This document shows, one piece after another, positions 982 through 15,045 of a stretch of DNA of 38,265 bases. Source of the DNA: a virus. Taxonomy: Duplodnaviria > Heunggongvirae > Uroviricota > Caudoviricetes. The stretch lies in the IMG/VR virus record IMGVR_UViG_2917870735_000001, positions 1-38,265 of that record; one strand, 5' to 3'. The notes beneath the pieces were generated by a model. The model was given only the letters and a program-made list of their open reading frames with translations. It ran no database searches and was not told the origin of the DNA. The position numbers and the translations under genes are program-made. Within the stretch, counting starts at the first letter, position 1, and the number at the start of each line of letters is the position of its first letter.

Positions 982-3044
982 TAGATTGACTCCCCCATCT
1001 GAGCATCAGTCAATGCCTTGTGCCATATTCTGAAATTCCTGATATGACCAAATAAATGACGTAATCCGGCTGTAGTCTGGCCTCCAATACGGATAACTGC
1101 GGTGCTCTGAATACAGGACCATGTGGTTTTTGTTTCGCTGGATATACGCCCGTTACTTACTGCGCATGTAGACTGATCAGACTTTACACGCATCCCCATA
1201 ACCATTTTTTCAAGTGATGCATTTTCGTTTATCCGTCTGTTAGACCCACCAATATCGCAATAAGGAAATCCGTCGTAATCTGCTGAAGAACCGAAGCCAA
1301 GAATAATAGCCGCTCCGGTTTGATGACCGCCGGTATCAAAAACACGCGGTGCTGCATTTGGCGTTTTATACCAGTTCTTATGTACCTCACAAAGAACCGT
1401 AAAAGGAAGATTATAAAGATTATTCTTAATTGGGACTGTAACTATATCGCTTGCCCGTGTTACCGGTGCAGCCCCCGTAACAATAAAAGATGATGCGCCT
1501 GTACCAGCCTCAATCTGGGGAGTGGTTACATCGAGACAATCCCCTGATGCCACCATCTGACCTGTATCCGGAGAATACTGGACGAAACCACCAACCGTAT
1601 TTTCTGTTGTATCTGCTTTTAATGTAGCCTCAAAAAATATCCAGCCAGTTGCATCATCCTTAACAGACCTTGCTGTAACACGGCTTGTCTGGCCTGTCTT
1701 GCCAATTATGCGGGTGGTAAGGTTCAGGCTTGCTGCTCCTATTGATGTCCTTACATCCCCATCATAATGTTCAAATAAAATACGAACGGCGATATTATCA
1801 ACTTCACTTTTTACCCGACAGGATATAGTTACATACTTTTCGTCACCTGAAGTATCAACCCCTCCGGTACTTGAATACAGCCCTATAATGGTATGCGCTT
1901 TACTTGTGCCAACAATCGAATCCTGTACGACAAACCGGCCATAATTAAAACCGAAACTATCTGTGCCTGTTTCTGTAACGTCCAGTGAAGTTGACTTATT
2001 CCACTTCGAAGGGTCTGTACTGTTCGGGAAGAAGTTCGTTCTTTGCCCCTCAATAAGCAGGCCATCACGTTCAAATCGTGGCTCGTCAATGGCAGCCTCT
2101 GTCAGCACACCAGATTTATTAATGTAAGTTGCTTTTGATGCGCGTTTAAACTTTACAATCTTGTCGCCAGGCATTGTTATTTCATCGTCGCCAATAACAA
2201 TCTTTTTATATGACGGCGAAAAGCCCGTAATCATATCCAGTGAATCATTAAACGGAATCCAGACATCAGGCAGCGGCGGAACTATATTCACATATGGTTT
2301 TACAGCCACTTCCGCTGCAGCTTCTGCGCGGTCTGCCGCCGCTTCAGAACGTGTCGCCGCCGCGACGGCTTCATCCTTTTTCTGCCCGGCCTTTGTTGCC
2401 TCTGCTGCGGCCTCCTGCGCTTTTGTGGTGGCAGTTTCAGCCGCTGTTGTCGCTGATAATGCTTCACGACGTGCTGCGTCAGCATTTTCTGCAGATTTCT
2501 CCTCTGACGCCCGGGCATTAGTCTCTGAAAGTGATGCTGCTGTTGCTGCTTTTTCTGATGCTGTTTTAGAAGATGCAGCAGCTTTCTCGCTGTTGGCTGA
2601 ATTCGTCTCTGACGTTTTCGCCGCGTTCTTCGATGAAGCCGCTGCAGTTTCGGATTTCTTTGCCGCCGCTGCGCTCTGAGAGGCGGCTTCGGCGTTGCGT
2701 GCCGCTTCTTCCACCATTTCCTCAAAACGACGCAATGCCTCCGGCATGACATCATCTTCCGTCATGGCACCGAGAAAATCATTCAGCGTACCTGGTCTGG
2801 AACCTTCATAGACGGTAATGGTCCCGGCATGTGAAGGCGGAAAACCTTCAACCAGCAGGATAACGCTGTACTGGCCATACTCAACATCCATGCTGTAACG
2901 CCCGGCTTCATCCGGATTTTCAGAGGCCACCGTGTTCACCAGTACCGTGGTGCTGTTACGCTTTGCCTTCAGTTGAATAGTGCAGTTCTGTATTGGTTTT
3001 CCCGCACCATCTTTCAGCACACCTGAGATTTTTACTGCTGCCAT
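981..3044 (-). CDS. stf: side tail fibre protein (lambda Stf-like N-terminus, Ala/Ser-rich central repeats)
   Basis: N-terminus MAAVKISGVLKDGAGKPIQNCTIQLKA.. matches remembered lambda Stf N-terminus; ATG at 3044 (a GTG lies 6 nt upstream at 3050); long low-complexity A/S/T/E-rich collagen-like middle; position downstream of lom as in lambda. Confidence 0.85.
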   Translation of the reverse strand: MAAVKISGVLKDGAGKPIQNCTIQLKAKRNSTTVLVNTVASENPDEAGRYSMDVEYGQYSVILLVEGFPPSHAGTITVYEGSRPGTLNDFLGAMTEDDVMPEALRRFEEMVEEAARNAEAASQSAAAAKKSETAAASSKNAAKTSETNSANSEKAAASSKTASEKAATAASLSETNARASEEKSAENADAARREALSATTAAETATTKAQEAAAEATKAGQKKDEAVAAATRSEAAADRAEAAAEVAVKPYVNIVPPLPDVWIPFNDSLDMITGFSPSYKKIVIGDDEITMPGDKIVKFKRASKATYINKSGVLTEAAIDEPRFERDGLLIEGQRTNFFPNSTDPSKWNKSTSLDVTETGTDSFGFNYGRFVVQDSIVGTSKAHTIIGLYSSTGGVDTSGDEKYVTISCRVKSEVDNIAVRILFEHYDGDVRTSIGAASLNLTTRIIGKTGQTSRVTARSVKDDATGWIFFEATLKADTTENTVGGFVQYSPDTGQMVASGDCLDVTTPQIEAGTGASSFIVTGAAPVTRASDIVTVPIKNNLYNLPFTVLCEVHKNWYKTPNAAPRVFDTGGHQTGAAIILGFGSSADYDGFPYCDIGGSNRRINENASLEKMVMGMRVKSDQSTCAVSNGRISSETKTTWSCIQSTAVIRIGGQTTAGLRHLFGHIRNFRIWHKALTDAQMGESI

Positions 3045-3055
3045 ATCCACTCCAC

Positions 3056-3082
3056 AAAAAGGCCCGCCTGAACCGGCGGGCT
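3056..3082 (-). terminator. rho-independent terminator downstream of lom
   Basis: GC stem (cccgcc / ggcggg, about 7 bp) with a run of A on the plus strand at 3056..3060, i.e. T-run after the stem on the minus strand; 27 nt after the lom stop. Confidence 0.55.
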
Positions 3083-3108
3083 GTCATAACACTGTGTTAC
3101 CTGGCTAA

Positions 3109-3708
3109 TCAGAATTTATAACCGACACCCACGATGAAACCGTCAGTGCGCCAGTCGTCACTGCCGGAACCTTCATATGCAAGGTCAATGGCCACGGATT
3201 CGGTCGGGTTAAACTGCACACCCGCCCCCCACGCCAGAGACGTGTTGCTGTGGCGGTTGTCATCGCTTCCGGTCAGCACATCATGCATTTTCCCCTTGTT
3301 GTCGGTCACCTGAAGATAATCCCCGGAAAAAGTCGAAACACGGCTGTAAGCCACACCCGCCATCGCATAAGCACTGAACCATTCATTCACGCGTACAGAC
3401 GGCCCCGCCATCACGCTGAACCAGCGGTTACGCACTGAATCTTCATGCCAGCGGGTATCGCTGTAACGGGTAATCTGGCGATTCTTGTCTCCTGCATAGC
3501 TGAATGACGTCACCAGCCCCAGCGTGTCCGTAAATTCATAACGGTATTTCACGTTAATGCCCTTCAGGTCATCGTTGCCGGGCATATCAGTATGGGACTG
3601 AAGATACCCGCCGCTTAGTGTGGACTGATGCTCTGCTGCACTCGCTGGCGTACCAGCGGCGACCAGCCAGACTACTGCAGACAGAATAACAGCACATAAT
3701 TTACGCAT
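3109..3708 (-). CDS. lom: Lom/Ail-family outer membrane beta-barrel protein
   Basis: 199 aa with signal peptide ([24 protein letters not shown]) and C-terminal ..[25 protein letters not shown] identical in pattern to remembered lambda Lom; located between J and stf as in lambda. Confidence 0.9.
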
Positions 3709-3775: not shown

Positions 3776-6700
3776 TCAACTGATACTGATACCGGCTGTT
3801 GATTTCTTCATCACGACAACAAGAAGGTCGCTGATACTGGTCGTTGGCGTCCAGTTATTAGCACCATATGAAGAAACATTGAAAGTCAGGGTGACATGAC
3901 CGTGTCCGGCAGGCATATCAATGACGGATGAAAATACCCTGCTGACATCCGTCGCGGGTTGCTGAAAGATTTCCTGTCCGTTCTTCAACACCTGCAGCTT
4001 ACAGGTTGAATACCAGTATGACTGTTGGTTGTTGCTGTTGAAGTTTTCATGCTTACCACCGCGAAACAGAACGGGTGGGATTACTATCTGACGGTCAAAA
4101 GCCTGGTCATCGTACACAGTGACCGTTATTGTACCGCTGGCATAACTGCCATTTCTCGGAAAGGCTTTTCCCACCGTTTTGACAATATCACCTTCAATCT
4201 GGTTGGCAGACAGTTTTCCCAGAATCCGACAGTTCTGGTTAATCGTGACATTGTTGAGCGTCCCGGAGTTCGCATTCACGTTACCGCTGATATCGGCATT
4301 TTTCGCCGTCAGCCGCCCGTCCGGTGTCAGGGAAAATACCGGAGGATTACCGCCGCTGGTAATGGTTGGAGCCGTCAGATACTTCAGGAACACCTCGTTC
4401 ATGAATATCTGGTTGCCCTGCGCCACAAACATCGGCGTTTCATTTCCGTTTGCCGGGTCAATAAACGCGATACGGTTAGCGGCAACCAGGAACTGGCTCA
4501 GTTTACCTTCCTCCGTATCCTCCATGCTGAGGCCAAGCCCCGTGACATAATGCCTGCCGTCTTCGGTCTGCTCAATTTTGACGCCCCACATGGCATTCCA
4601 TTTATCGTTGGCATCTTTCCACTCTTTCGAAAACTCCTCCAGTTTGCTGGCGTTATCCTCCGTCAGCTCGACTTTTTCCAGCAGCTCCTTGCCGAGATGG
4701 GATTCAGTTATCTGGCCTTTGAAAAAATCCAGGTAACCTTCCGCATCATCGCTCGCCTGACCGACAGCCTCCACGAATGCCGATTTGCCAACAGTATTCA
4801 CACTGCGGATATAAAAATAATAATCATGGCCCGGCTTAATATTGATACTGGCAGCTATCCAGTACAGCGCCGTGCCAAGATAGCGGGCTGTGGTTTCAAC
4901 CTGCCTGATATCCGCAATCCGCTTTTCCGAGAACCAGAATTCAAACTGTACCGTCGGGTCATAAACGGCAAGATGCGGCGTTGCGGTTATCTGAAAATAG
5001 CCCGGCGTCAGATCAATCCTCGACGGTGCTGCCGGTGCGGCAATCCGGAACGATACCGACGCCGGATCGCCCTGCTGCCCCCACGCATTTACCGCCCGGA
5101 CTGTCAGCCTGTAGTTCCCCAACGCCAGTTGTGTGAAGCGGTATGTGGTTTCCGTCGTCCTGGCAGTGCTGACCAGCCGCTCACTGCCGTCATCCGCTGT
5201 CACGGTCAGACGGAGCAGGAAGCTCACGCCCTTCACCACCTTTGGTGTGTCCCATCGCGCCAGCACCTGATATTCCCCGCTATCTGCAGTGACTTCTGCG
5301 GTCAGGTGCTGCACTGCTGGCGGTGTGACACCGTTCACCGTGCCGCTCTGGTCACCGTCAAAGTGCGCCCCGTTATCCACGATGGCTTCTTTTTCCGGTA
5401 CATGCTGCACGGCGGTGATGGCATACGTACCGTCATCGTTCTCCCGGATACTCACACAGCGGAACAGGCGCTGGCGCAGCGTCGGCAGCTTCAGCCCCCA
5501 CACGCTGTATTCGGCAACGCCGTCAGGAACACGGCTCACTTTCACCTTCACGCCGTCGGTGACGGACTGGACCTCCACGCTGACCGGATTACCCTGCCCG
5601 TCAACCAGGCTTATCAGCGTGGTGCCGGAGGATGGCAGCGTGATTTCACGGTCGAGCGTCAGTGTCCGCGTCTGGCTGTTCACCGCCAGCACGCGCCCGC
5701 CGGTGCTGATACCGGCATAGTCATCATCACAGATTTCAATGACATCGCCCGGCACATGGCGAAGCCCTTCTGCGCCCACGCTGAAGTCCACGGTCTGCGT
5801 TTCCAGCAGCTCCGTTTTAATCAGCCACAGCCCGGCGCGGTGCGCCTGCCCCCGGCTGGTACAGCCAAAGGCATCCATCTTCGTGACGTTACGACCGTAA
5901 CGGGCAATGGCCTGTGTGTCCTCCACAAGCTCTGTCGCCGTCTCCCAGCCGTTATTCGGGTCAATCCAGTTCACCTCAACGGCAGTATGGCGGTCCTTCA
6001 GGGCGCTGAAGCTGTAGCGGAACGGCGCGCCATCATCCGGCATCACCACATTACTGCGGTTATAGGTCCACACCTTATCCGACGGTCGGTCCTGCACGAA
6101 CGTCAGCGTCTGCCCGTTCCATACCGGCATACAGCGCATCGCCGAGCAGAAATCACTGAGAACATCCCACGCCTTACGCTGTGTGGTCAGATACGCATTA
6201 CAGGTGATACGCGGCTCCGTGCCGCCAAAACCGTCCGGCACCGACTGATCGCAATGCTGGCCGATGACATACAGCGCCCATTTGTCCACATCCGCCGCAC
6301 CAAGACGTTTCCCCATGCCGTAGCGCGGATGGGTCAGCATATCCCACAGACACCATGCCATGTTGTTGCTGTATGCTGGCTTAAACGTTCCGTCCCAGAT
6401 ACCGCTGTATTGCCGCGTCTGCGGGTTATAGTTCGACGGCACCTGCAGAATGCGCCCGCGAAGATGATAATTACGGCTCACCTGCTGGCTGCCGAACTGC
6501 TCCGAGTCCACCTGCACGCCGACCAGTGCCGTGTTCGGGTAGCACTGTTTCACATCGATGATTTCGGTGTATGACGACCAGAGCGTTTTGTTCTGCAGCT
6601 GGTCTGTGGTGCTGTCCGGCGTCATCCTGCGCATCCGGATGTTGAACGGGCGCGGCGGCAGGTTATCCACCACCACCGAGGCCAGATACTGTGAAGTTGT

Positions 6701-9560: not shown

Positions 9561-12500
9561 TCAGGCACTGCATAATCCTCCGTCCCGACGTGATGACTGC
9601 ATAATTGACACAACCCTGCTGTCGATCAGATCCACCAGCCCCCTGGCTGACTGCGTATCTATCTCGCCATTGCTCCCTTTATTCTGAATACTGATGTGAT
9701 ACACGGGAGAATAGACAAATCCCCCGCCACCACTCACATTCCCAATGGCTCTGACCCCTAGGGAGCCGTCCGCTGCCCGAGTCAGTGGCATGATAGCTTC
9801 AGGCCCGGCCTCGCCCATCAGCCCGGCACCTTTCGCAAAAGCAAAATACGTCGGTGTATCCACAATGGTGTTACTGTAAGCACTCAGATTTGCCGATGTG
9901 TAAACACCGCCTTTTGCGTTCGCTACTGCACCGGAAAGCCAGTCGCCAACACTACCAATCCATCCCCCCGCTCCCGACATTGTCCCGGAGAGTGATTTCA
10001 GCCCGTTAACAATGGCCGCGTTCATCAGGATTTTTGAAACTTCCTGAAGGATCGAACTCCCCCAGTTTCTCCAGTCCACAACGTTGCCGGCCAGTGCCTC
10101 AGAAATATTTGAAACCAGACCATCCATAGTGGAAACGACCGCATCTGCCGCTTGTGAAGCATAATCAGTGGCACTGTCTGCCCAGTTCGTCAGCCCCTCT
10201 TTGAGCCCGGCATTCCAGTTACTGCGTAAAGCATCGGCCTTTGCATAATAATCCTGCTGATCGTTGAGACGCTCCTCCAGATATTTTTCATTCAGCGTTT
10301 TTTCCTGTTTCCACAGGGCTTCTTCGATTTCTCCGGTCTGGTACTGTCTCAGCAACTCATTATTTTTCTGCTCAAACTCCTGTCGGATGTTCCACATTTC
10401 CTGAAGCCGCTCACGTATTCGTGTTCCGTCTCCATACCCTAACAACTGAGCCTCATTTGATGCCCTGACACTGGCGTTACTGTCCGCCAGGCTGCTTTCA
10501 TAAGCAGCAATTTGCTCACGAATTTTTTTCTGGTCGATGAGTGCTGCATTCTGTAAAAGGGTTTGTTTCTGCGCTTCTGATAAGGTTAATAATTCGCCCT
10601 GGCTGACCTGGTATTTCATCTTAGCCAGTTCAGTATTCTGTCCTGCCAGTGCTATTTGTTCTTTTTGTTGTTTAATCAGTCTGTTATAAGCATCTTCCGT
10701 TTTTTCTGCTTCCGATTTTCCACCACGTACTTTTGGCTTATTCGCCTGGTTGTTACGCCATGCTTCCAGCGCGTTGTTGATATAAGTTTGCCTTGCCGTC
10801 TGATAGGCATCCCCCACAAAACCGAGATCATCCGCTACATAGCCCAGACGAGTACGCTCACGCGCTTCCCCCTTCATACGGGATAAGGTCAGCTCTCGCT
10901 CAGTGTTATTCAGCGCGTTCTGCTGTTTATCATCCAGAGCAGCCTGTGGCAGCCGTAACGGTACATTCACCAGCCCCTGTCGCTGCTGAAGTAATTCATT
11001 ACCAAGCCCAAGAAGACGATTAAACTCGGTATGTTGGCCATTCATGATCAGTAATGACTGATATGCTTTGTTTTGTTCCGCTGCCTGTTGGCGGATCAGC
11101 ACCACTCGTCGTTCTTCCAGCCCGGCAAGCACATCCTGGATTGACTGGGCTTTTTCCTGCATTCCGGAAAGTCGGGACTGCTCAACAGCCAGCTGACTTG
11201 TTGCTTCTGCAAGCCCTTCTGTGACAGTTTTCACCGACGTCATGTGGTTAATCATAAAACCGTTATCGGTTGTCCAGCCCGGGTTTGCCAGGACATACTG
11301 ATAGCCAGCAATTTTTTCCTGTAAGGATTTAATCTTACTTTTCTGCTCGTCAATTAACCTGTTCTGCTCCTCCAGAGCCTGCCGCGTCTTTTCTTCATTA
11401 TCTGCCGCTTCAGGAAGTGACATTGCAGACGTTTTCTGGCGAATTTCGTCGATTGTTGCGGCATACTGACGCGCTGATTCTCTGGCCTGCTCCTGGTTCT
11501 GATACATTGTGTACCAGGCCGCCGCCCCCAGCATGACAAGTCCAGGCACACCACCAACCAGCCCCAGAGCACCACTTAACAACCGACTACTAACTGACGT
11601 AACGTTATTCAGCGTTGCCTGTGCCGCTGTTCTGGCGGCAATATTACGGGTAAGTGAAGCCTGTGCGGTTGCCAGTTTCGCTTCTGCTGCAGCCTGTTTT
11701 TCTGTACCACGGGCAGCCACAACCGCCTGCTGCGCACGATACAATGCCGCCCGCGCTCTGGCTGTTGCTATCTGTGTCCCTCTGAGCTGTGCCTCAGCAA
11801 GAGCCACTTCGTTTCTGGCAGCAGTGATTAACCCGGCAGTTGCAGAGCCCGCAGAAGACGCCATATTGCCAAAATATCGGGCTACACCAATTGCAACCAG
11901 AGCTCCCGCCGCCGTGGCAACCGTATCAATATTATTCGCAACACCATTCATTATTCCGGTAAGCGTTTTCGTTGCACCGCTGGCATCATTCGCACCACCA
12001 ACCCAGGCCATAAAGGCGTTTTCAACTTTGGTTGCAGAGGATGATACGGTATCAGGCATGGCTGCATATTCATCCCGCAGCGTACCAAGCTGGCTAATCA
12101 GTGCAGGAACAACCTTATCGGCGGTCAGCTTTCCATCATCCGCCATTGCCTTCAGATCTTTACGGGCAACCCCCATTCCTGCAGCCAGAGCACGAATAAC
12201 ACGATCACCGCTTTCATTTACTGAATTAAACTCTTCACCGCGCAGAACCCCTTGCGCCAGTGCCTGGCTGAACTGAGTGATCACCGAGCTGGCTTCCGCA
12301 GAACTGGCTCCGGACAATTTCAATCCTGTAGAAATGGCCTCGGTAACTTTCAGTACTTCCTCAGACCTGTAACCATATTCCCGCATGGAAGAAGCCGAAC
12401 GTGCAAAAAGACTGGCGTTATCAGCAAAAGCAGTACCCGTTCTCTGGCTGATCGCCATTAATTCGCGCTGTGATGCCTGGAAATCATCGCTGGACTGCGT

Positions 12501-12803
12501 GGCCTGCTTCAGACGGGCATTTACTGAGCTCCATTCATCCGCAAGAGATATAAGATGTCCAGTGGCAAAAGCACCGGCAAATGCGCCAGCCATATTCATT
12601 GCCGAAGACTTCGCCGTATTTATCTGCTCGGTCACTTCTGCCAGTGCTCGCCGCATATCACGGGATGCAGCTGCAGACTGTCGACCTCCGTTCTGCATGG
12701 TACGGTAGTACTCCTGTCCCATACGTGAAGCTCGCGCAATTTCTGACTGGAATGACTGCGAATTTGCCGAGATTTTTATAATCAGTTCGCGTAGTGACGC
12801 CAT
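9561..12803 (-). CDS. tail tape measure protein
   Basis: 1080-aa ORF with ATG at 12803 and GGAGAA RBS; highly alpha-helical Ala/Gln/Glu-rich composition; positioned between the G/G-T chaperone pair and M. Longer than, and not obviously colinear with, lambda H. Confidence 0.85.
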   Translation of the reverse strand: MASLRELIIKISANSQSFQSEIARASRMGQEYYRTMQNGGRQSAAASRDMRRALAEVTEQINTAKSSAMNMAGAFAGAFATGHLISLADEWSSVNARLKQATQSSDDFQASQRELMAISQRTGTAFADNASLFARSASSMREYGYRSEEVLKVTEAISTGLKLSGASSAEASSVITQFSQALAQGVLRGEEFNSVNESGDRVIRALAAGMGVARKDLKAMADDGKLTADKVVPALISQLGTLRDEYAAMPDTVSSSATKVENAFMAWVGGANDASGATKTLTGIMNGVANNIDTVATAAGALVAIGVARYFGNMASSAGSATAGLITAARNEVALAEAQLRGTQIATARARAALYRAQQAVVAARGTEKQAAAEAKLATAQASLTRNIAARTAAQATLNNVTSVSSRLLSGALGLVGGVPGLVMLGAAAWYTMYQNQEQARESARQYAATIDEIRQKTSAMSLPEAADNEEKTRQALEEQNRLIDEQKSKIKSLQEKIAGYQYVLANPGWTTDNGFMINHMTSVKTVTEGLAEATSQLAVEQSRLSGMQEKAQSIQDVLAGLEERRVVLIRQQAAEQNKAYQSLLIMNGQHTEFNRLLGLGNELLQQRQGLVNVPLRLPQAALDDKQQNALNNTERELTLSRMKGEARERTRLGYVADDLGFVGDAYQTARQTYINNALEAWRNNQANKPKVRGGKSEAEKTEDAYNRLIKQQKEQIALAGQNTELAKMKYQVSQGELLTLSEAQKQTLLQNAALIDQKKIREQIAAYESSLADSNASVRASNEAQLLGYGDGTRIRERLQEMWNIRQEFEQKNNELLRQYQTGEIEEALWKQEKTLNEKYLEERLNDQQDYYAKADALRSNWNAGLKEGLTNWADSATDYASQAADAVVSTMDGLVSNISEALAGNVVDWRNWGSSILQEVSKILMNAAIVNGLKSLSGTMSGAGGWIGSVGDWLSGAVANAKGGVYTSANLSAYSNTIVDTPTYFAFAKGAGLMGEAGPEAIMPLTRAADGSLGVRAIGNVSGGGGFVYSPVYHISIQNKGSNGEIDTQSARGLVDLIDSRVVSIMQSSRRDGGLCSA

Positions 12804-12818
12804 TCTCGTTCTCCAGGC

Positions 12819-12845
12819 AAAAAAAAACCGCCGAAGCGGTTTTTG
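12819..12845 (-). terminator. rho-independent (potentially bidirectional) terminator between the moron ORF and the tape measure gene
   Basis: Stem accgc / gcggt with loop cgaa, flanked by a 9-A run (12819..12827) and a T run (12840..12844); on the minus strand the stem is followed by nine T. Confidence 0.7.
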
Positions 12846-12848
12846 CTT

Positions 12849-13190
12849 TTAAAGAAGCCCAGCCTTACGCCTTGCTTCTTCAAGATATTCATCATCCGTT
12901 TTTTGCGAAACGGTACTATCAGGGTTATGTGTTAAATCACTACCGCAATGCTTACACTTAATGGCTTCTTCTTTGATCAACTCCGCACAGTAAGGGCATT
13001 TTTTCATGCCATTGCTCACCATTTGTTGCTCATGCGTTTTTTCATCTTTTTGGATTACAAGTGAATGAACCAGGGCAACGATAAAGAGTAAGGCTCCGTA
13101 TATCCACCATCCCCAAAATGAACGCCCTTTACTTTGCGCGATAATAGCCGGAATTAACCCCAGGACTAGCGCAATAAGAATAACTTCCAT
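12849..13190 (-). CDS. small membrane protein with C-terminal zinc-ribbon (CPYC..CKHC); moron
   Basis: ATG at 13190 with strong AAGGAGA RBS; two predicted TM helices then CPYCAELIKEEAIKCKHCGSDL; AT-rich relative to flanking tail genes; own terminator downstream; inserted between the G-T chaperone and the tape measure gene. Confidence 0.6.
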   Translation of the reverse strand: MEVILIALVLGLIPAIIAQSKGRSFWGWWIYGALLFIVALVHSLVIQKDEKTHEQQMVSNGMKKCPYCAELIKEEAIKCKHCGSDLTHNPDSTVSQKTDDEYLEEARRKAGLL

Positions 13191-13248
13191 CAATATCTCC
13201 TTATTTACTTAATAAAAATCGGAATCATAATCCAGTAAAGTAAGAAGA

Positions 13249-13560
13249 TCATTGTGTCGCTGCAAATAATGCATTTTCAAACGCTGTAAACGGATCTTTA
13301 ATATTATTTGCAGGAACGACCTCCCACTGAAGAATCGCTTCATTCAGTGGAACTTTGACACCCTGCGCCCCGTAAACTGCAGAAACTATCTGGGCAGCCC
13401 GGATATCAGCCCGCTCGTCACCCAGCGGGCTGATCCTGTCAAATTCTGCCCACATCATGATTTCCGATGCAGACATTTCCCGGCGTAACTCTGACAATGT
13501 GCGCCCCATCCTGAGCGCCAGCATCATCAGAAAACGAATACCCGGAAGTGCTACTTTTTT
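13249..13560 (-). CDS. T-like extension of tail assembly chaperone (expressed as G-T fusion by -1 frameshift)
   Basis: ORF in the -1 frame relative to G, open from the slippery site through to 13249; the T-frame stop TAA at 13563..13561 lies just upstream of the slip site. Confidence 0.6.
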   Translation of the reverse strand, partial: KKVALPGIRFLMMLALRMGRTLSELRREMSASEIMMWAEFDRISPLGDERADIRAAQIVSAVYGAQGVKVPLNEAILQWEVVPANNIKDPFTAFENALFAATQ

Positions 13561-13931
13561 TTAATAACTTCAGCATCAGTGATCAGTTCCAGTGACTGAC
13601 GAAGCAGTCGCGCATGTACCGGACCATATACTGTAAGTACCTGCTCCCGATCATCCGCTGAAAACACGGGTTGCATCCCGGTATCACACAGAACATCGAT
13701 GAACAGTTCAACATCCGCTTCCAGATTTCGGCGGGCACGCTCCGCAACTGATAACGGTGTATCATCATCTCCGGTTTTAACGATCTCCTGCCAACGTAAC
13801 CAGGCTTCTGCAGAGGGTTCCCGTAATACAACCGTTGTACCTTCCCACTCAGGAACATCAACTGTTTTGTGGCGAAAACCAGACATCGTCGCCAGTGCCA
13901 GATTGCGGATATTTTTAGACATAGATTTCAT
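13551..13931 (-). CDS. tail assembly chaperone (G-like)
   Basis: 126-aa acidic protein immediately downstream of the major tail gene, ending in KKK-stop at the slippery site; conserved synteny major tail - G - G-T - tape measure. Confidence 0.7.
   Translation of the reverse strand: MKSMSKNIRNLALATMSGFRHKTVDVPEWEGTTVVLREPSAEAWLRWQEIVKTGDDDTPLSVAERARRNLEADVELFIDVLCDTGMQPVFSADDREQVLTVYGPVHARLLRQSLELITDAEVIKKK
13554..13560 (-). other. programmed -1 ribosomal frameshift slippery heptamer A AAA AAG
   Basis: Minus-strand sequence GAA GTT ATT AAA AAA AAG TAG at the 3' end of G; the heptamer A-AAA-AAG is a classic -1 slippery site and the -1 frame continues ..KKVALPGYSFLMMLALR.. without stops. Confidence 0.7.
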
Positions 13932-13936
13932 CCTCC

Positions 13937-14641
13937 TTAACTGACAGTTACGGTGCAGGAAGTGGAGGTCACCTTATTAACCGGGCTTGCTGAATCAGAA
14001 ACCTCACAGGTATACGCACCGGCATCTCCGGATGTCACAGAGGCCTTGTTGAAAGTTGCCGATGTCTGCCCGGAAACTGGAGAGCTGCCTTTCTTCCAGA
14101 CATATGAATAAGGAGGCACACCACCTGATGCCTCAACAGACATATTCAGCGTTTCACTGGCAGAAACCTGTAGTGTACTTTTCAAATCAGAGAGGAGTTT
14201 CAAAGGTTCAGTGGTCAGAGAGGGCTTTCCTTTCAGGCGCAGGGAAAATGTGGCAGCAACAACACCGTTGGTTCCCACAGACCAGGTATGCTGGCGAACT
14301 TCTGCCATAAAGGTAAATCCATTTCCTGACGGGAAAATAACTTTGAAACCGTATGTGGTGTCGTTGTCATAAGCACTACGCAACGCGTTCTGGGCAGCGT
14401 TGAGATAAAAGTTTCCTGACATGGAAATCTCTGAAGCAGCCCCAAGACCGTTGATATTCTCCTGCTCGGTAGAACACAGCGTAGTGACATCAATATCCTG
14501 TTTCTGCCCGGCGGTAAACTGAACCTCTTTAATCGTACAGCTCAGTTCAAGAAAACTGGCAGAACTCAGCGTTTCTGCCGTTACCGGTGCAGACGAGATC
14601 ATGACTTTGGTCTGCTGAGAACGTTCAAAATTAGAGGACAT
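13937..14641 (-). CDS. major tail protein with C-terminal Ig-like domain
   Basis: ATG at 14641 with AGGAGA RBS (the longer ORF to 14692 overlaps a terminator hairpin); C-terminal ..SGGVPPYSYVWKKGSSPVSGQTSATFNKASVTSGDAGAYTCEVSD.. is an Ig-like (Big_2-type) pattern common on major tail proteins. Confidence 0.75.
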   Translation of the reverse strand: MSSNFERSQQTKVMISSAPVTAETLSSASFLELSCTIKEVQFTAGQKQDIDVTTLCSTEQENINGLGAASEISMSGNFYLNAAQNALRSAYDNDTTYGFKVIFPSGNGFTFMAEVRQHTWSVGTNGVVAATFSLRLKGKPSLTTEPLKLLSDLKSTLQVSASETLNMSVEASGGVPPYSYVWKKGSSPVSGQTSATFNKASVTSGDAGAYTCEVSDSASPVNKVTSTSCTVTVS

Positions 14642-14653
14642 ACTCGTCTCCTG

Positions 14654-14680
14654 AAAATAAAAAACCCGCCAGCGGCGGGT
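14654..14680 (-). terminator. rho-independent terminator-like hairpin upstream of the major tail gene
   Basis: 7-bp GC stem acccgcc / ggcgggt with a 3-nt loop; on the minus strand followed by TTTTTTATTTT. Confidence 0.55.
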
Positions 14681-14700: not shown

Positions 14701-15045
14701 TCAGGCAATTACCTGAAATTCAAGCGTAGCTCTGCTCAGACGGGAATCAGGATCATAACCCTGAGTTTTAGAAATAACGGATGGTGCCAGTTCCCTTACC
14801 GCATCAAGCGCCTGCTCACGGATATCATCTGCGTCATCAGGAGCCGTTGCCCAGATATCAATCTGCACTGTGATTCTGGATTCAGCCTGACCATCAAGCA
14901 CATCAGACGCGATGTCAGACACCACTGAAAACACCAGCCATGGTGGAAATACCGCAGGCTTTCCCTCCGTCAGCGGGACCACATAAGGATAAACCTGCCC
15001 TCCGGCCAGTTTGGACAGAAGAGCATACAGCGTGGCTTCTCTCAT
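14701..15045 (-). CDS. tail completion/terminator-like protein
   Basis: 114 aa; ATG overlaps upstream stop (ATGA); position between head-tail joining genes and major tail gene. Function assigned by synteny only. Confidence 0.45.
   Translation of the reverse strand: MREATLYALLSKLAGGQVYPYVVPLTEGKPAVFPPWLVFSVVSDIASDVLDGQAESRITVQIDIWATAPDDADDIREQALDAVRELAPSVISKTQGYDPDSRLSRATLEFQVIA

Follow-up and report, generated by a model that had tools for sequence, protein, structure and literature searches.

A zinc-ribbon membrane protein gene in the moron slot ahead of the tape measure gene of an HK97-like prophage: a candidate barrier to phage genome entry

In the 38,265-nucleotide (nt) viral sequence IMGVR_UViG_2917870735_000001 of IMG/VR (Caudoviricetes), hereafter called the window, a gene for a 113-amino-acid (aa) membrane protein with a zinc ribbon lies between the tail assembly gene T and the gene of the tape measure protein (TMP). 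The window shares 99.7% identity with an HK97-like prophage located beside dusA in Escherichia coli FDAARGOS_497, in which RefSeq has the identical gene under the name 'zinc ribbon domain-containing protein'. The analysis described here indicates that this gene is a well-delimited moron, optional and horizontally exchanged, in line with a concept of morons that is already established. Moreover, it occupies the archetypal moron slot of HK97-type tail operons, 5′ of a terminator hairpin that is fixed at the junction and is no part of the inserted cassette. As for its function, the protein could well be an inner-membrane factor, expressed from the prophage, that blocks the TMP-mediated genome entry of related siphophages, a reading which we hold tentatively, with belief and doubt close to balance.

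The coding sequence, which belongs to the phrog_8436 family, extends over positions 12849..13190 (stop codon included) of the minus strand, on which all the features described below are located. It starts with ATG and is preceded, 6 nt upstream, by the ribosome-binding site (RBS) AAGGAG (13197..13202), as read from the sequence. The match to the phrog_8436 hidden Markov model is full-length (E 3.2e-51, residues 1-111 on profile positions 1-108 of 110), although this family carries no annotated function, and a search with the 113-aa protein retrieves 1,761 homologues at E<=1e-3. In addition, the ratio of nonsynonymous to synonymous substitutions (dN/dS) between the window gene and two other E. 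coli alleles is 0.08, denoting strong purifying selection. The gene is real and under constraint, and therefore the earlier observation of an AT-rich open reading frame (ORF) with a strong RBS at these positions, made by a model from the letters of the DNA (hereafter the original prediction), is confirmed.

The same prediction described the product as a membrane protein with two transmembrane (TM) helices and a C-terminal zinc ribbon, and this description is borne out by a Pfam match together with a structural model. Specifically, residues 62-86 (12933..13007), with the sequence KKCPYCAELIKEEAIKCKHCGSDL, match Zn_ribbon_3 (PF13248) with an E-value of 1.1e-8 and 34.6 bits, compared to a gathering cut-off of 27 bits, and the four ribbon cysteines C65, C68, C79 and C82 are invariant in the family alignment. 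The AlphaFold2 model, with a mean predicted local distance difference test (pLDDT) score of 81.5, comprises two helices (residues 2-20 and 25-45, both with pLDDT >90), a short helix, the ribbon, a disordered stretch and a final helix. The first two helices would form a TM hairpin (residues 2-45, 13056..13187), whose loop and second TM helix (TM2) carry the invariant motif IPAxIAxSKGRSFxxWWxYG...ALxHS. The final helix (residues 99-109, 12864..12896; EYLEEARRKAG) is predicted to be amphipathic and is found exclusively in the short form of the family, described below, that populates the slot between T and TMP.

The original prediction had also proposed to compare this junction across relatives, and the comparison identifies the ORF as an insertion. 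Among the closest T relatives in IMG/VR, 74 junctions could be scored, 66 of which are empty, while 7 hold the gene and 1 a decayed, truncated copy. A particularly clear pair is offered by E. coli WP2-S18-ESBL-07 and CREC-2, which share the same G protein: in the former the T stop codon is separated from the TMP start by 45 bp and the slot is empty, in the latter the slot holds a copy of the gene with 86% identity. When filled and empty junctions are aligned, the insert, roughly 400 bp long in both CREC-2 and the window, is seen to start immediately past the T stop codon and to end right ahead of the hairpin. On a broader scale, out of 5,426 complete E. coli genomes 54 carry the gene, always on the chromosome, and 903 the G/T part of the query. 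In the IMG/VR record UViG_2778261301_000008 the gene has decayed to 57 aa (MEFVLISIILGLIPAIITKSKGCSF...) between T and TMP, in a tail module that is otherwise intact, which suggests ongoing loss.

According to the Hendrix/Juhala definition, a moron lies between genes that are adjacent in related phages, deviates in base composition, carries its own promoter and its own factor-independent terminator, and is expressed from the repressed prophage. The empty and filled junctions correspond to the first of these properties, and the guanine-plus-cytosine (GC) content, 0.37-0.43 across 12800-13400 compared to 0.50-0.57 in the flanks, corresponds to the second. Upstream of the gene, a promoter-like arrangement is conserved among orthologues, with a weak -35 in the window (see below). 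A terminator carried by the insert itself is absent, as the hairpin is also found at empty junctions and behind unrelated cargo. In other words, near-identical tail modules differ by the presence or absence of the gene, its composition deviates and a promoter-like element is conserved along with it: this is a true accessory gene of the moron type, as had been proposed.

The position of the insertion has a notable history. HK97 gene 15, annotated as 'moron product', lies between G-T and TMP and is followed by an annotated putative terminator; it is the very element for which the term moron was coined (PMC3594210). Its product, gp15, is described in the accounts cited here as an inner-membrane superinfection-exclusion protein, whose block is relieved by a swap of the tail region (PMC3594210; PMC10883804). 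Moreover, gp15 derives from the cellular protein YebO, and morons are often of cellular-gene origin (PMC3594210). Other phages place different cargo in this slot, including a YebO-like protein in Klebsiella ST101-KPC2phi6.3, a 137-aa lipoprotein in Salmonella SW-37, a 116-aa secreted Cys-rich protein in Aeromonas AsXd-1 and, in Pseudomonas phage D14Q, a BamE-like lipoprotein together with a homologue of the window gene. All types of cargo found in the slot are envelope-directed. The junction between T and TMP is the archetypal moron slot, and the earlier statement that it is normally uninterrupted in HK97-like phages is wrong, given that HK97 gene 15 sits exactly here and relatives hold YebO-like, lipoprotein or secreted cargo.

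A second element of the junction is the intrinsic-terminator hairpin at 12819..12844, recognised by folding and by comparison across junctions, which has a C(UUCG)G tetraloop and a nine-T run. The hairpin, AAAAACCGC-UUCG-GCGGUUUUU (12844..12823, with the T-run at 12827..12819), begins six bases past the stop codon of the gene and has a minimum free energy of -12.2 kcal/mol. By itself this energy is unexceptional (z = -1.5); what supports the structure is that it is conserved, with covarying stems, from locus to locus. Where filled and empty sites are aligned, the hairpin ACCGCTTCGGCGG and its T-run are identical in the empty site, and a hairpin with a T-run precedes the TMP start in 66/66 empty junctions. 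More generally, a GC hairpin followed by a T-run lies 10-25 nt 5′ of the TMP start throughout this class of tail modules, whether the junction is empty or holds gp15, YebO-like, lipoprotein, secreted or zinc-ribbon cargo. The stems covary (CCCCGC/GCGGGG, CCTCAC/GTGAGG, GCCCCAC/GTGGGGC, ACCGC/GCGGT); since they differ by paired changes, the structure of the hairpin is selected. Likewise, since the same hairpin is found at empty junctions and behind all cargo, it is a resident feature of the junction and is not cassette-borne. From this comparison of sequences, cargo appears to be inserted 5′ of the resident hairpin and to make use of it. The original prediction of a self-contained gene with its own terminator (placed at 12819..12845) holds as far as a hairpin and T-run directly downstream are concerned, but not with regard to ownership, as the hairpin is present without the gene. 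The junction hairpin is also visible in the comparison loci L005 (about 3460-3490), L007 (1399-1423), L262, L263 and L264.

In phages devoid of cargo, the hairpin could act as an attenuator or as an mRNA stabiliser, or could be a relic of, or a docking site for, morons. The prophage encodes an antitermination protein and, from general knowledge of lambdoid late operons, late transcription would be expected to read through the hairpin. A fixed terminator with exchangeable 5′ cargo refines the textbook view of the moron as a self-contained unit of promoter, gene and terminator.

At the other end of the insert, 23 of 24 orthologue upstream regions, which differ from one another at no fewer than, that is at least, 5 positions, display the arrangement [G/T/A]TGA[C/T]N, exactly 17 nt, TA[G/T/A][G/T/A]AT, located 27-34 nt 5′ of the ATG. 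The hexamers are kept while the spacer and the leader (5′ untranslated region) vary. In the orthologues the -35-like hexamer is mostly GTGACA, whose TGA is the stop codon of T. In the window, orthologue comparison assigns the -35-like hexamer ATGATC to 13247..13252, again overlapping the TGA stop of gene T, and the -10-like hexamer TATGAT, which is TAGGAT in most orthologues, to 13224..13229. A putative promoter thus seems to be conserved along with the gene. The AT-rich, promoter-like region that had been placed upstream of the gene (13194..13248) is supported by this conserved arrangement, but not by a consensus promoter scan, which finds no site inside these positions. The sole minus-strand site that the scan detects near the gene is the alternative TTGAAA-18-CACAAT (13251..13280, 9/12 consensus matches), within the 3′ end of gene T and poorly conserved in the CREC-2 allele; promoter-scan sites in the region are no more numerous than in shuffled sequence.

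The protein belongs to a large family. Across Enterobacterales, core residues 1-86 are almost invariant, in particular G11, P14, A15, A18, K21, G22, R23, F25, W28, W29, Y31, G32, F36, A39, H42 and the KCPxCAE...KCKHCGSD ribbon. Two forms of the protein differ in what comes after the core: the short form, of about 113 aa, ends in a short tail, whereas the long form, of about 173-190 aa, has an extra domain of about 90 aa. The short form lies between G/T and the TMP gene in 80/80 IMG/VR loci, and retains 66-71% identity where G and T drop to 47-68% and TMP to 38-72%. Therefore, the association with the slot is old and broad, with recent gains and losses within E. coli, and the notion of a one-off insertion does not hold. 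Long forms are found directly 5′ of TMP genes of the TMP_2/TMP_4 type in 13 loci and in E. coli P0073. Their other sites include the junction between TMP and M (2 loci), that between L and K (4 loci), positions after K (5 loci, namely K|I in 2, with the downstream gene not identified in 3) and contexts without named neighbours (12 loci). The position immediately 5′ of TMP is also taken by more distant homologues (31-36% identity), in Klebsiella ST846-OXA48phi9.2 and two types of Pseudomonas phage. Overall, the TMP genes that have a family member as their immediate 5′ neighbour fall into three Pfam classes and come from phages of E. coli, Salmonella, Klebsiella and Pseudomonas. In the Klebsiella phages KP12 and ST15-VIM1phi2.1, homologues of 54-57% identity (unannotated in ST15-VIM1phi2.1) occupy another cluster of virion genes, downstream of proteins with an SLT-transglycosylase domain and upstream of DUF2612 and baseplate-like genes.

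When the TM hairpin alone (residues 1-50, 13041..13190) is used as query, 1,904 cluster representatives are retrieved at E<=1e-3, with clustering at 50% identity. Among the best 145 of these relatives, no Pfam family covers the hairpin part, and the partner domains are mostly zinc ribbons (73/145), in addition to SHOCT and GYF_2. From these searches, the TM hairpin appears to be a distinct and widespread domain outside Pfam. It is sometimes duplicated in one protein, and fusions with helix-turn-helix (HTH), pentapeptide-repeat, ankyrin, SHOCT, SIR2-like or OB-fold domains are observed.

Two known systems are informative for the function of the protein. The first is HK97 gp15, which shares with the window protein an identical slot, between the G-T chaperone gene and the TMP gene of an HK97-type tail operon. 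Both are small inner-membrane proteins (in the case of the window protein, by prediction) encoded by low-GC inserts that have their own RBS, a promoter region directly after the T stop (a putative one in the window) and a GC hairpin with a T-run just before the TMP start, and both are missing from related phages. On the other hand, gp15 is a protein of 62 aa with a single TM helix and lacks a zinc ribbon, whereas the window protein has 113 aa, two predicted TM helices and a Cys4 ribbon. Furthermore, exclusion by gp15 is reported as an experimental result (Juhala et al. 2000; Cumby et al. 2012, as relayed in PMC3594210), whereas for the window protein it is inferred.

The second is the superinfection-immunity type represented by T4 Imm and the Pfam family Imm_superinfect (PF14373). 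'Imm_superinfect plus zinc ribbon' is a common architecture, and the ribbon of these proteins, CPYCAExIxxxAIKC[KR]HCGSDL, is the same as that of the window protein. Specifically, the two have the same size and the same order of TM hairpin, linker and ribbon, a TM1 motif (hydrophobic)-P-A-I-I-A-x-x-(K/R) in common and the same alternative partner domains (zinc ribbon, SHOCT, GYF_2). In profile-profile comparison (hhalign), the window family and the Imm_superinfect plus zinc-ribbon family match with a probability of 99.6% and an E-value of 1.7e-24. The zinc ribbon of the window protein is homologous to that of the Imm_superinfect plus zinc-ribbon proteins. Moreover, one such protein, gp065 of Pseudomonas phage YMC11/02/R656, occupies the same chaperone|TMP slot; it matches Imm_superinfect (1.6e-18) and Zn_ribbon_3, and also phrog_8436 over both parts. 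The differences are that TM2 of the window protein is shorter and without the LGWTxxGW motif, and that T4 Imm itself is without a zinc ribbon. Genes for Imm plus zinc-ribbon proteins lie upstream of a long ORF in only 8/71 loci. In Pseudomonas relatives of YMC11/02/R656 (79% identity), the Imm plus zinc-ribbon gene is followed, after 63 bp, by an ORF of about 190-200 aa instead of the 1,006-aa TMP ORF, and this shorter ORF could represent either extra cargo or a broken TMP reading frame. As to the mechanism of this type, T4 Imm binds the T4 TMP and blocks genome translocation, and the same has been proposed for gp15 (bioRxiv 10.64898/2026.03.06.709160). A looser functional analogy is offered by TP-J34 Ltp, Tuc2009 Sie2009 and P22 SieA, which are also prophage-expressed envelope proteins stopping genome entry, but have unrelated folds and hosts, are encoded outside the tail operon and have no zinc ribbon. 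The exclusion operated by Ltp is overcome by changes in the TMP (PMC10883804).

A block of TMP-mediated genome entry is the function that we consider best placed, because of the slot precedent, the envelope nature of all slot cargo, the independent putative promoter, the ribbon homology and architecture shared with the superinfection-immunity type, and the recurrent position beside TMP genes from different families. Exclusion, already named as a candidate function in the original prediction, is retained here as the best functional guess. In such a scenario, in the lysogen the sigma-70-type promoter of the gene would drive a short monocistronic transcript, some 400 nt long, that terminates at the resident hairpin, while during lytic growth the gene would also be transcribed within the antiterminated late operon. 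The conserved two-helix hairpin would then insert into the inner membrane, carrying along the Cys4 ribbon and the short C-terminal helix. When the TMP of an incoming siphophage opens a channel in the inner membrane, the protein would interfere, and the DNA of related phages would be kept out, as is proposed for HK97 gp15, from the same slot, and shown for T4 Imm. In this scheme we infer lysogen transcription, membrane topology, exclusion activity and the TMP as target.

Several observations weigh against an entry block. Starting from expression, the window -35 hexamer ATGATC is weak, with only 3/6 matches to TTGACA, even if the -10 hexamer TATGAT is good. With regard to relatedness, the 99.6% profile match is carried by the zinc ribbon, as the TM hairpins alone score 18.1, within the range of 30 column-shuffled controls (maximum 18.7). 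In addition, PF14373 has no match at E<=1 to the window protein and none among the 145 hairpin relatives. Filing the protein under PF14373 was rejected, as the likeness of its hairpin to Imm_superinfect is not significant compared to the shuffled controls. A kinship with gp15/YebO was likewise rejected (BLASTP E = 5; no PF13974 match; PHROG 5031 for gp15 and 8436 for the window protein). As a universal rule, 'always beside TMP' fails too, given that long forms occupy L|K, K|I and TMP|M as well. Topology is a further difficulty. The positive-inside rule gives an ambiguous answer, with an average of 2.2 lysines and arginines per sequence in the hairpin loop and 2.4 in the C-terminal flank; an attempt to use multi-domain relatives (P0264, an HTH domain with two hairpins) gave contradictory orientations, depending on how TM segments are counted, and was dropped. 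If the ribbon is cytoplasmic, it cannot directly contact an incoming TMP, and the hairpin would have to do so. Finally, a search of PADLOC-DB 2.0 returned only weak partial matches of residues 46-105, the ribbon region, to homing-endonuclease and LmuB models, a search of NCBIfam only generic zinc-ribbon noise, and in the literature searched for the family no paper mentions any member.

The distribution of the family outside phages also counts against an entry block, and it introduces the alternative that survives best. Homologues at 40-60% core identity occur in many phyla; for the non-enteric ones a prophage context was looked for and not found, the neighbours being mostly ordinary cellular genes. 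The Pantoea copy lies in a decayed, non-phage region of the chromosome. Moreover, 7-8 loci of metagenome-assembled genomes (MAGs) hold a conserved cassette in which an SPFH/Band_7 gene is associated with a homologue. In this cassette, the homologue, of roughly 90 aa, starts about 47 bp after the SPFH gene (for example, ORFs 5076-5954 and 5989-6261 of the comparison locus L060); the MAG labels are Thermodesulfovibrionales, Nitrospirota, Ignavibacteriales and Desulfobacterales, and the SPFH proteins are 77-85% identical across nominally distant bins. A cellular membrane role unrelated to phages is possible, and phages may have recruited the gene from a cellular membrane module, by analogy with gp15 and YebO. 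Accordingly, the gene might operate a lysogenic conversion of host envelope physiology: the protein would have kept its cellular role, as a partner or regulator of an SPFH/FtsH-type complex or as an adaptor in stress response or signalling, to the benefit of the lysogen. Besides the cellular homologues, the combination of the hairpin domain with many unrelated domains and the precedent of morons derived from cellular genes, gp15 from YebO (PMC3594210), argue for this explanation. However, it leaves unexplained why the copies in Enterobacterales and Pseudomonas phages are almost exclusively found among tail and TMP genes, mostly directly 5′ of TMP, and the nearest architecture with a functional name is of the superinfection-immunity type. 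Taken together, envelope conversion is unlikely, if plausible enough to be kept in mind.

The arrangement of the locus suggests another alternative, in which the protein acts late in the lytic cycle of its own phage. That is, it could shield the inner membrane of the producing cell from the pore-forming TMP made there (self-immunity), or stop progeny from wasting genomes on infected cells and membrane debris. The gene is embedded in the late tail operon and oriented in the same way, lies immediately 5′ of TMP in several unrelated tail modules and has an identity that tracks that of the flanking tail genes. An analogy with colicin immunity has moreover been drawn for Imm and TMP (bioRxiv 10.64898/2026.03.06.709160). 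Nevertheless, the gene is dispensable, as most close relatives with near-identical G, T and TMP are without it and one has a pseudogene, and a conserved promoter-like element of its own would be superfluous for a purely late gene. We regard such a late helper as quite improbable. Lastly, an abortive-infection or toxin-like effector, a two-TM protein that depolarises or permeabilises the membrane upon infection so that the cell dies before progeny are made, is very improbable: it would suit a small hydrophobic hairpin protein on a prophage, and a SIR2-like domain, of a kind known from defence systems, is fused to one of the hairpin relatives, but the slot holds no partner sensor or antitoxin gene, no PADLOC model matches, and the core is strongly conserved and widely spread among cellular genomes, whereas toxins typically have a patchy distribution.

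Returning to a block of genome entry, the observations can be combined in a more ambitious reading, which we consider doubtful as a whole. The 'KGRSF-WW-YG' hairpin with zinc ribbon would be the hallmark of a large class of immunity proteins, so far unrecognised, that is sister to the T4 Imm type. In phages, the members of this class would act as TMP-specific entry blockers, with gene linkage kept by the co-evolution of blocker and TMP as a specificity pair, and would have been recruited from a cellular module that is SPFH-partnered in some bacteria. The fixed terminator hairpin of the junction would be the docking site at which envelope cargo can be swapped without disturbing the expression of the late operon. 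If the protein is indeed an entry blocker, a widespread, unstudied family would join the short list of proteins that stop phage DNA at the inner membrane. In addition, it would provide a second probe, unrelated to gp15, for the passage of HK97-type TMPs across the inner membrane. Since prophages of clinical Enterobacterales commonly carry the family, such a block could affect host range in phage therapy.

The neighbouring genes conform to a tail operon of the HK97 type. Upstream, the tail assembly protein T (13249..13527; Pfam Phage_tail_T, 2.1e-17) forms the distal part of the G-T frameshift product, and the tail chaperone G (13551..13931) matches Phage_TAC_1. The end of gene G contains an A8G slippery run (GTT ATT AAA AAA AAG TAG, 13553..13562), the expected site of the -1 frameshift for the G-T fusion. 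Downstream, the gene at 9561..12803 encodes an HK97-type TMP of 1,080 aa (Phage_HK97_TLTM, 7.6e-93; TMP_3; Tape_meas_lam_C), a member of the class of proteins that would be the target of an entry block. A second strong terminator-like hairpin (ACCCGCCGCTGGCGGGT then TTTTTATTTT) lies at 14654..14680, between the tail-completion gene (14701..15045) and the major tail gene (13937..14641); in HK97 a putative terminator is annotated one gene further on, between the major tail gene gp12 and gp13. Finally, a gene for an outer-membrane protein of the Ail/Lom family, at about 3029..3628 as mapped from the annotation of a relative, lies between the J-like tail-tip and tail-fibre genes, another position classically occupied by morons, the second in this prophage.

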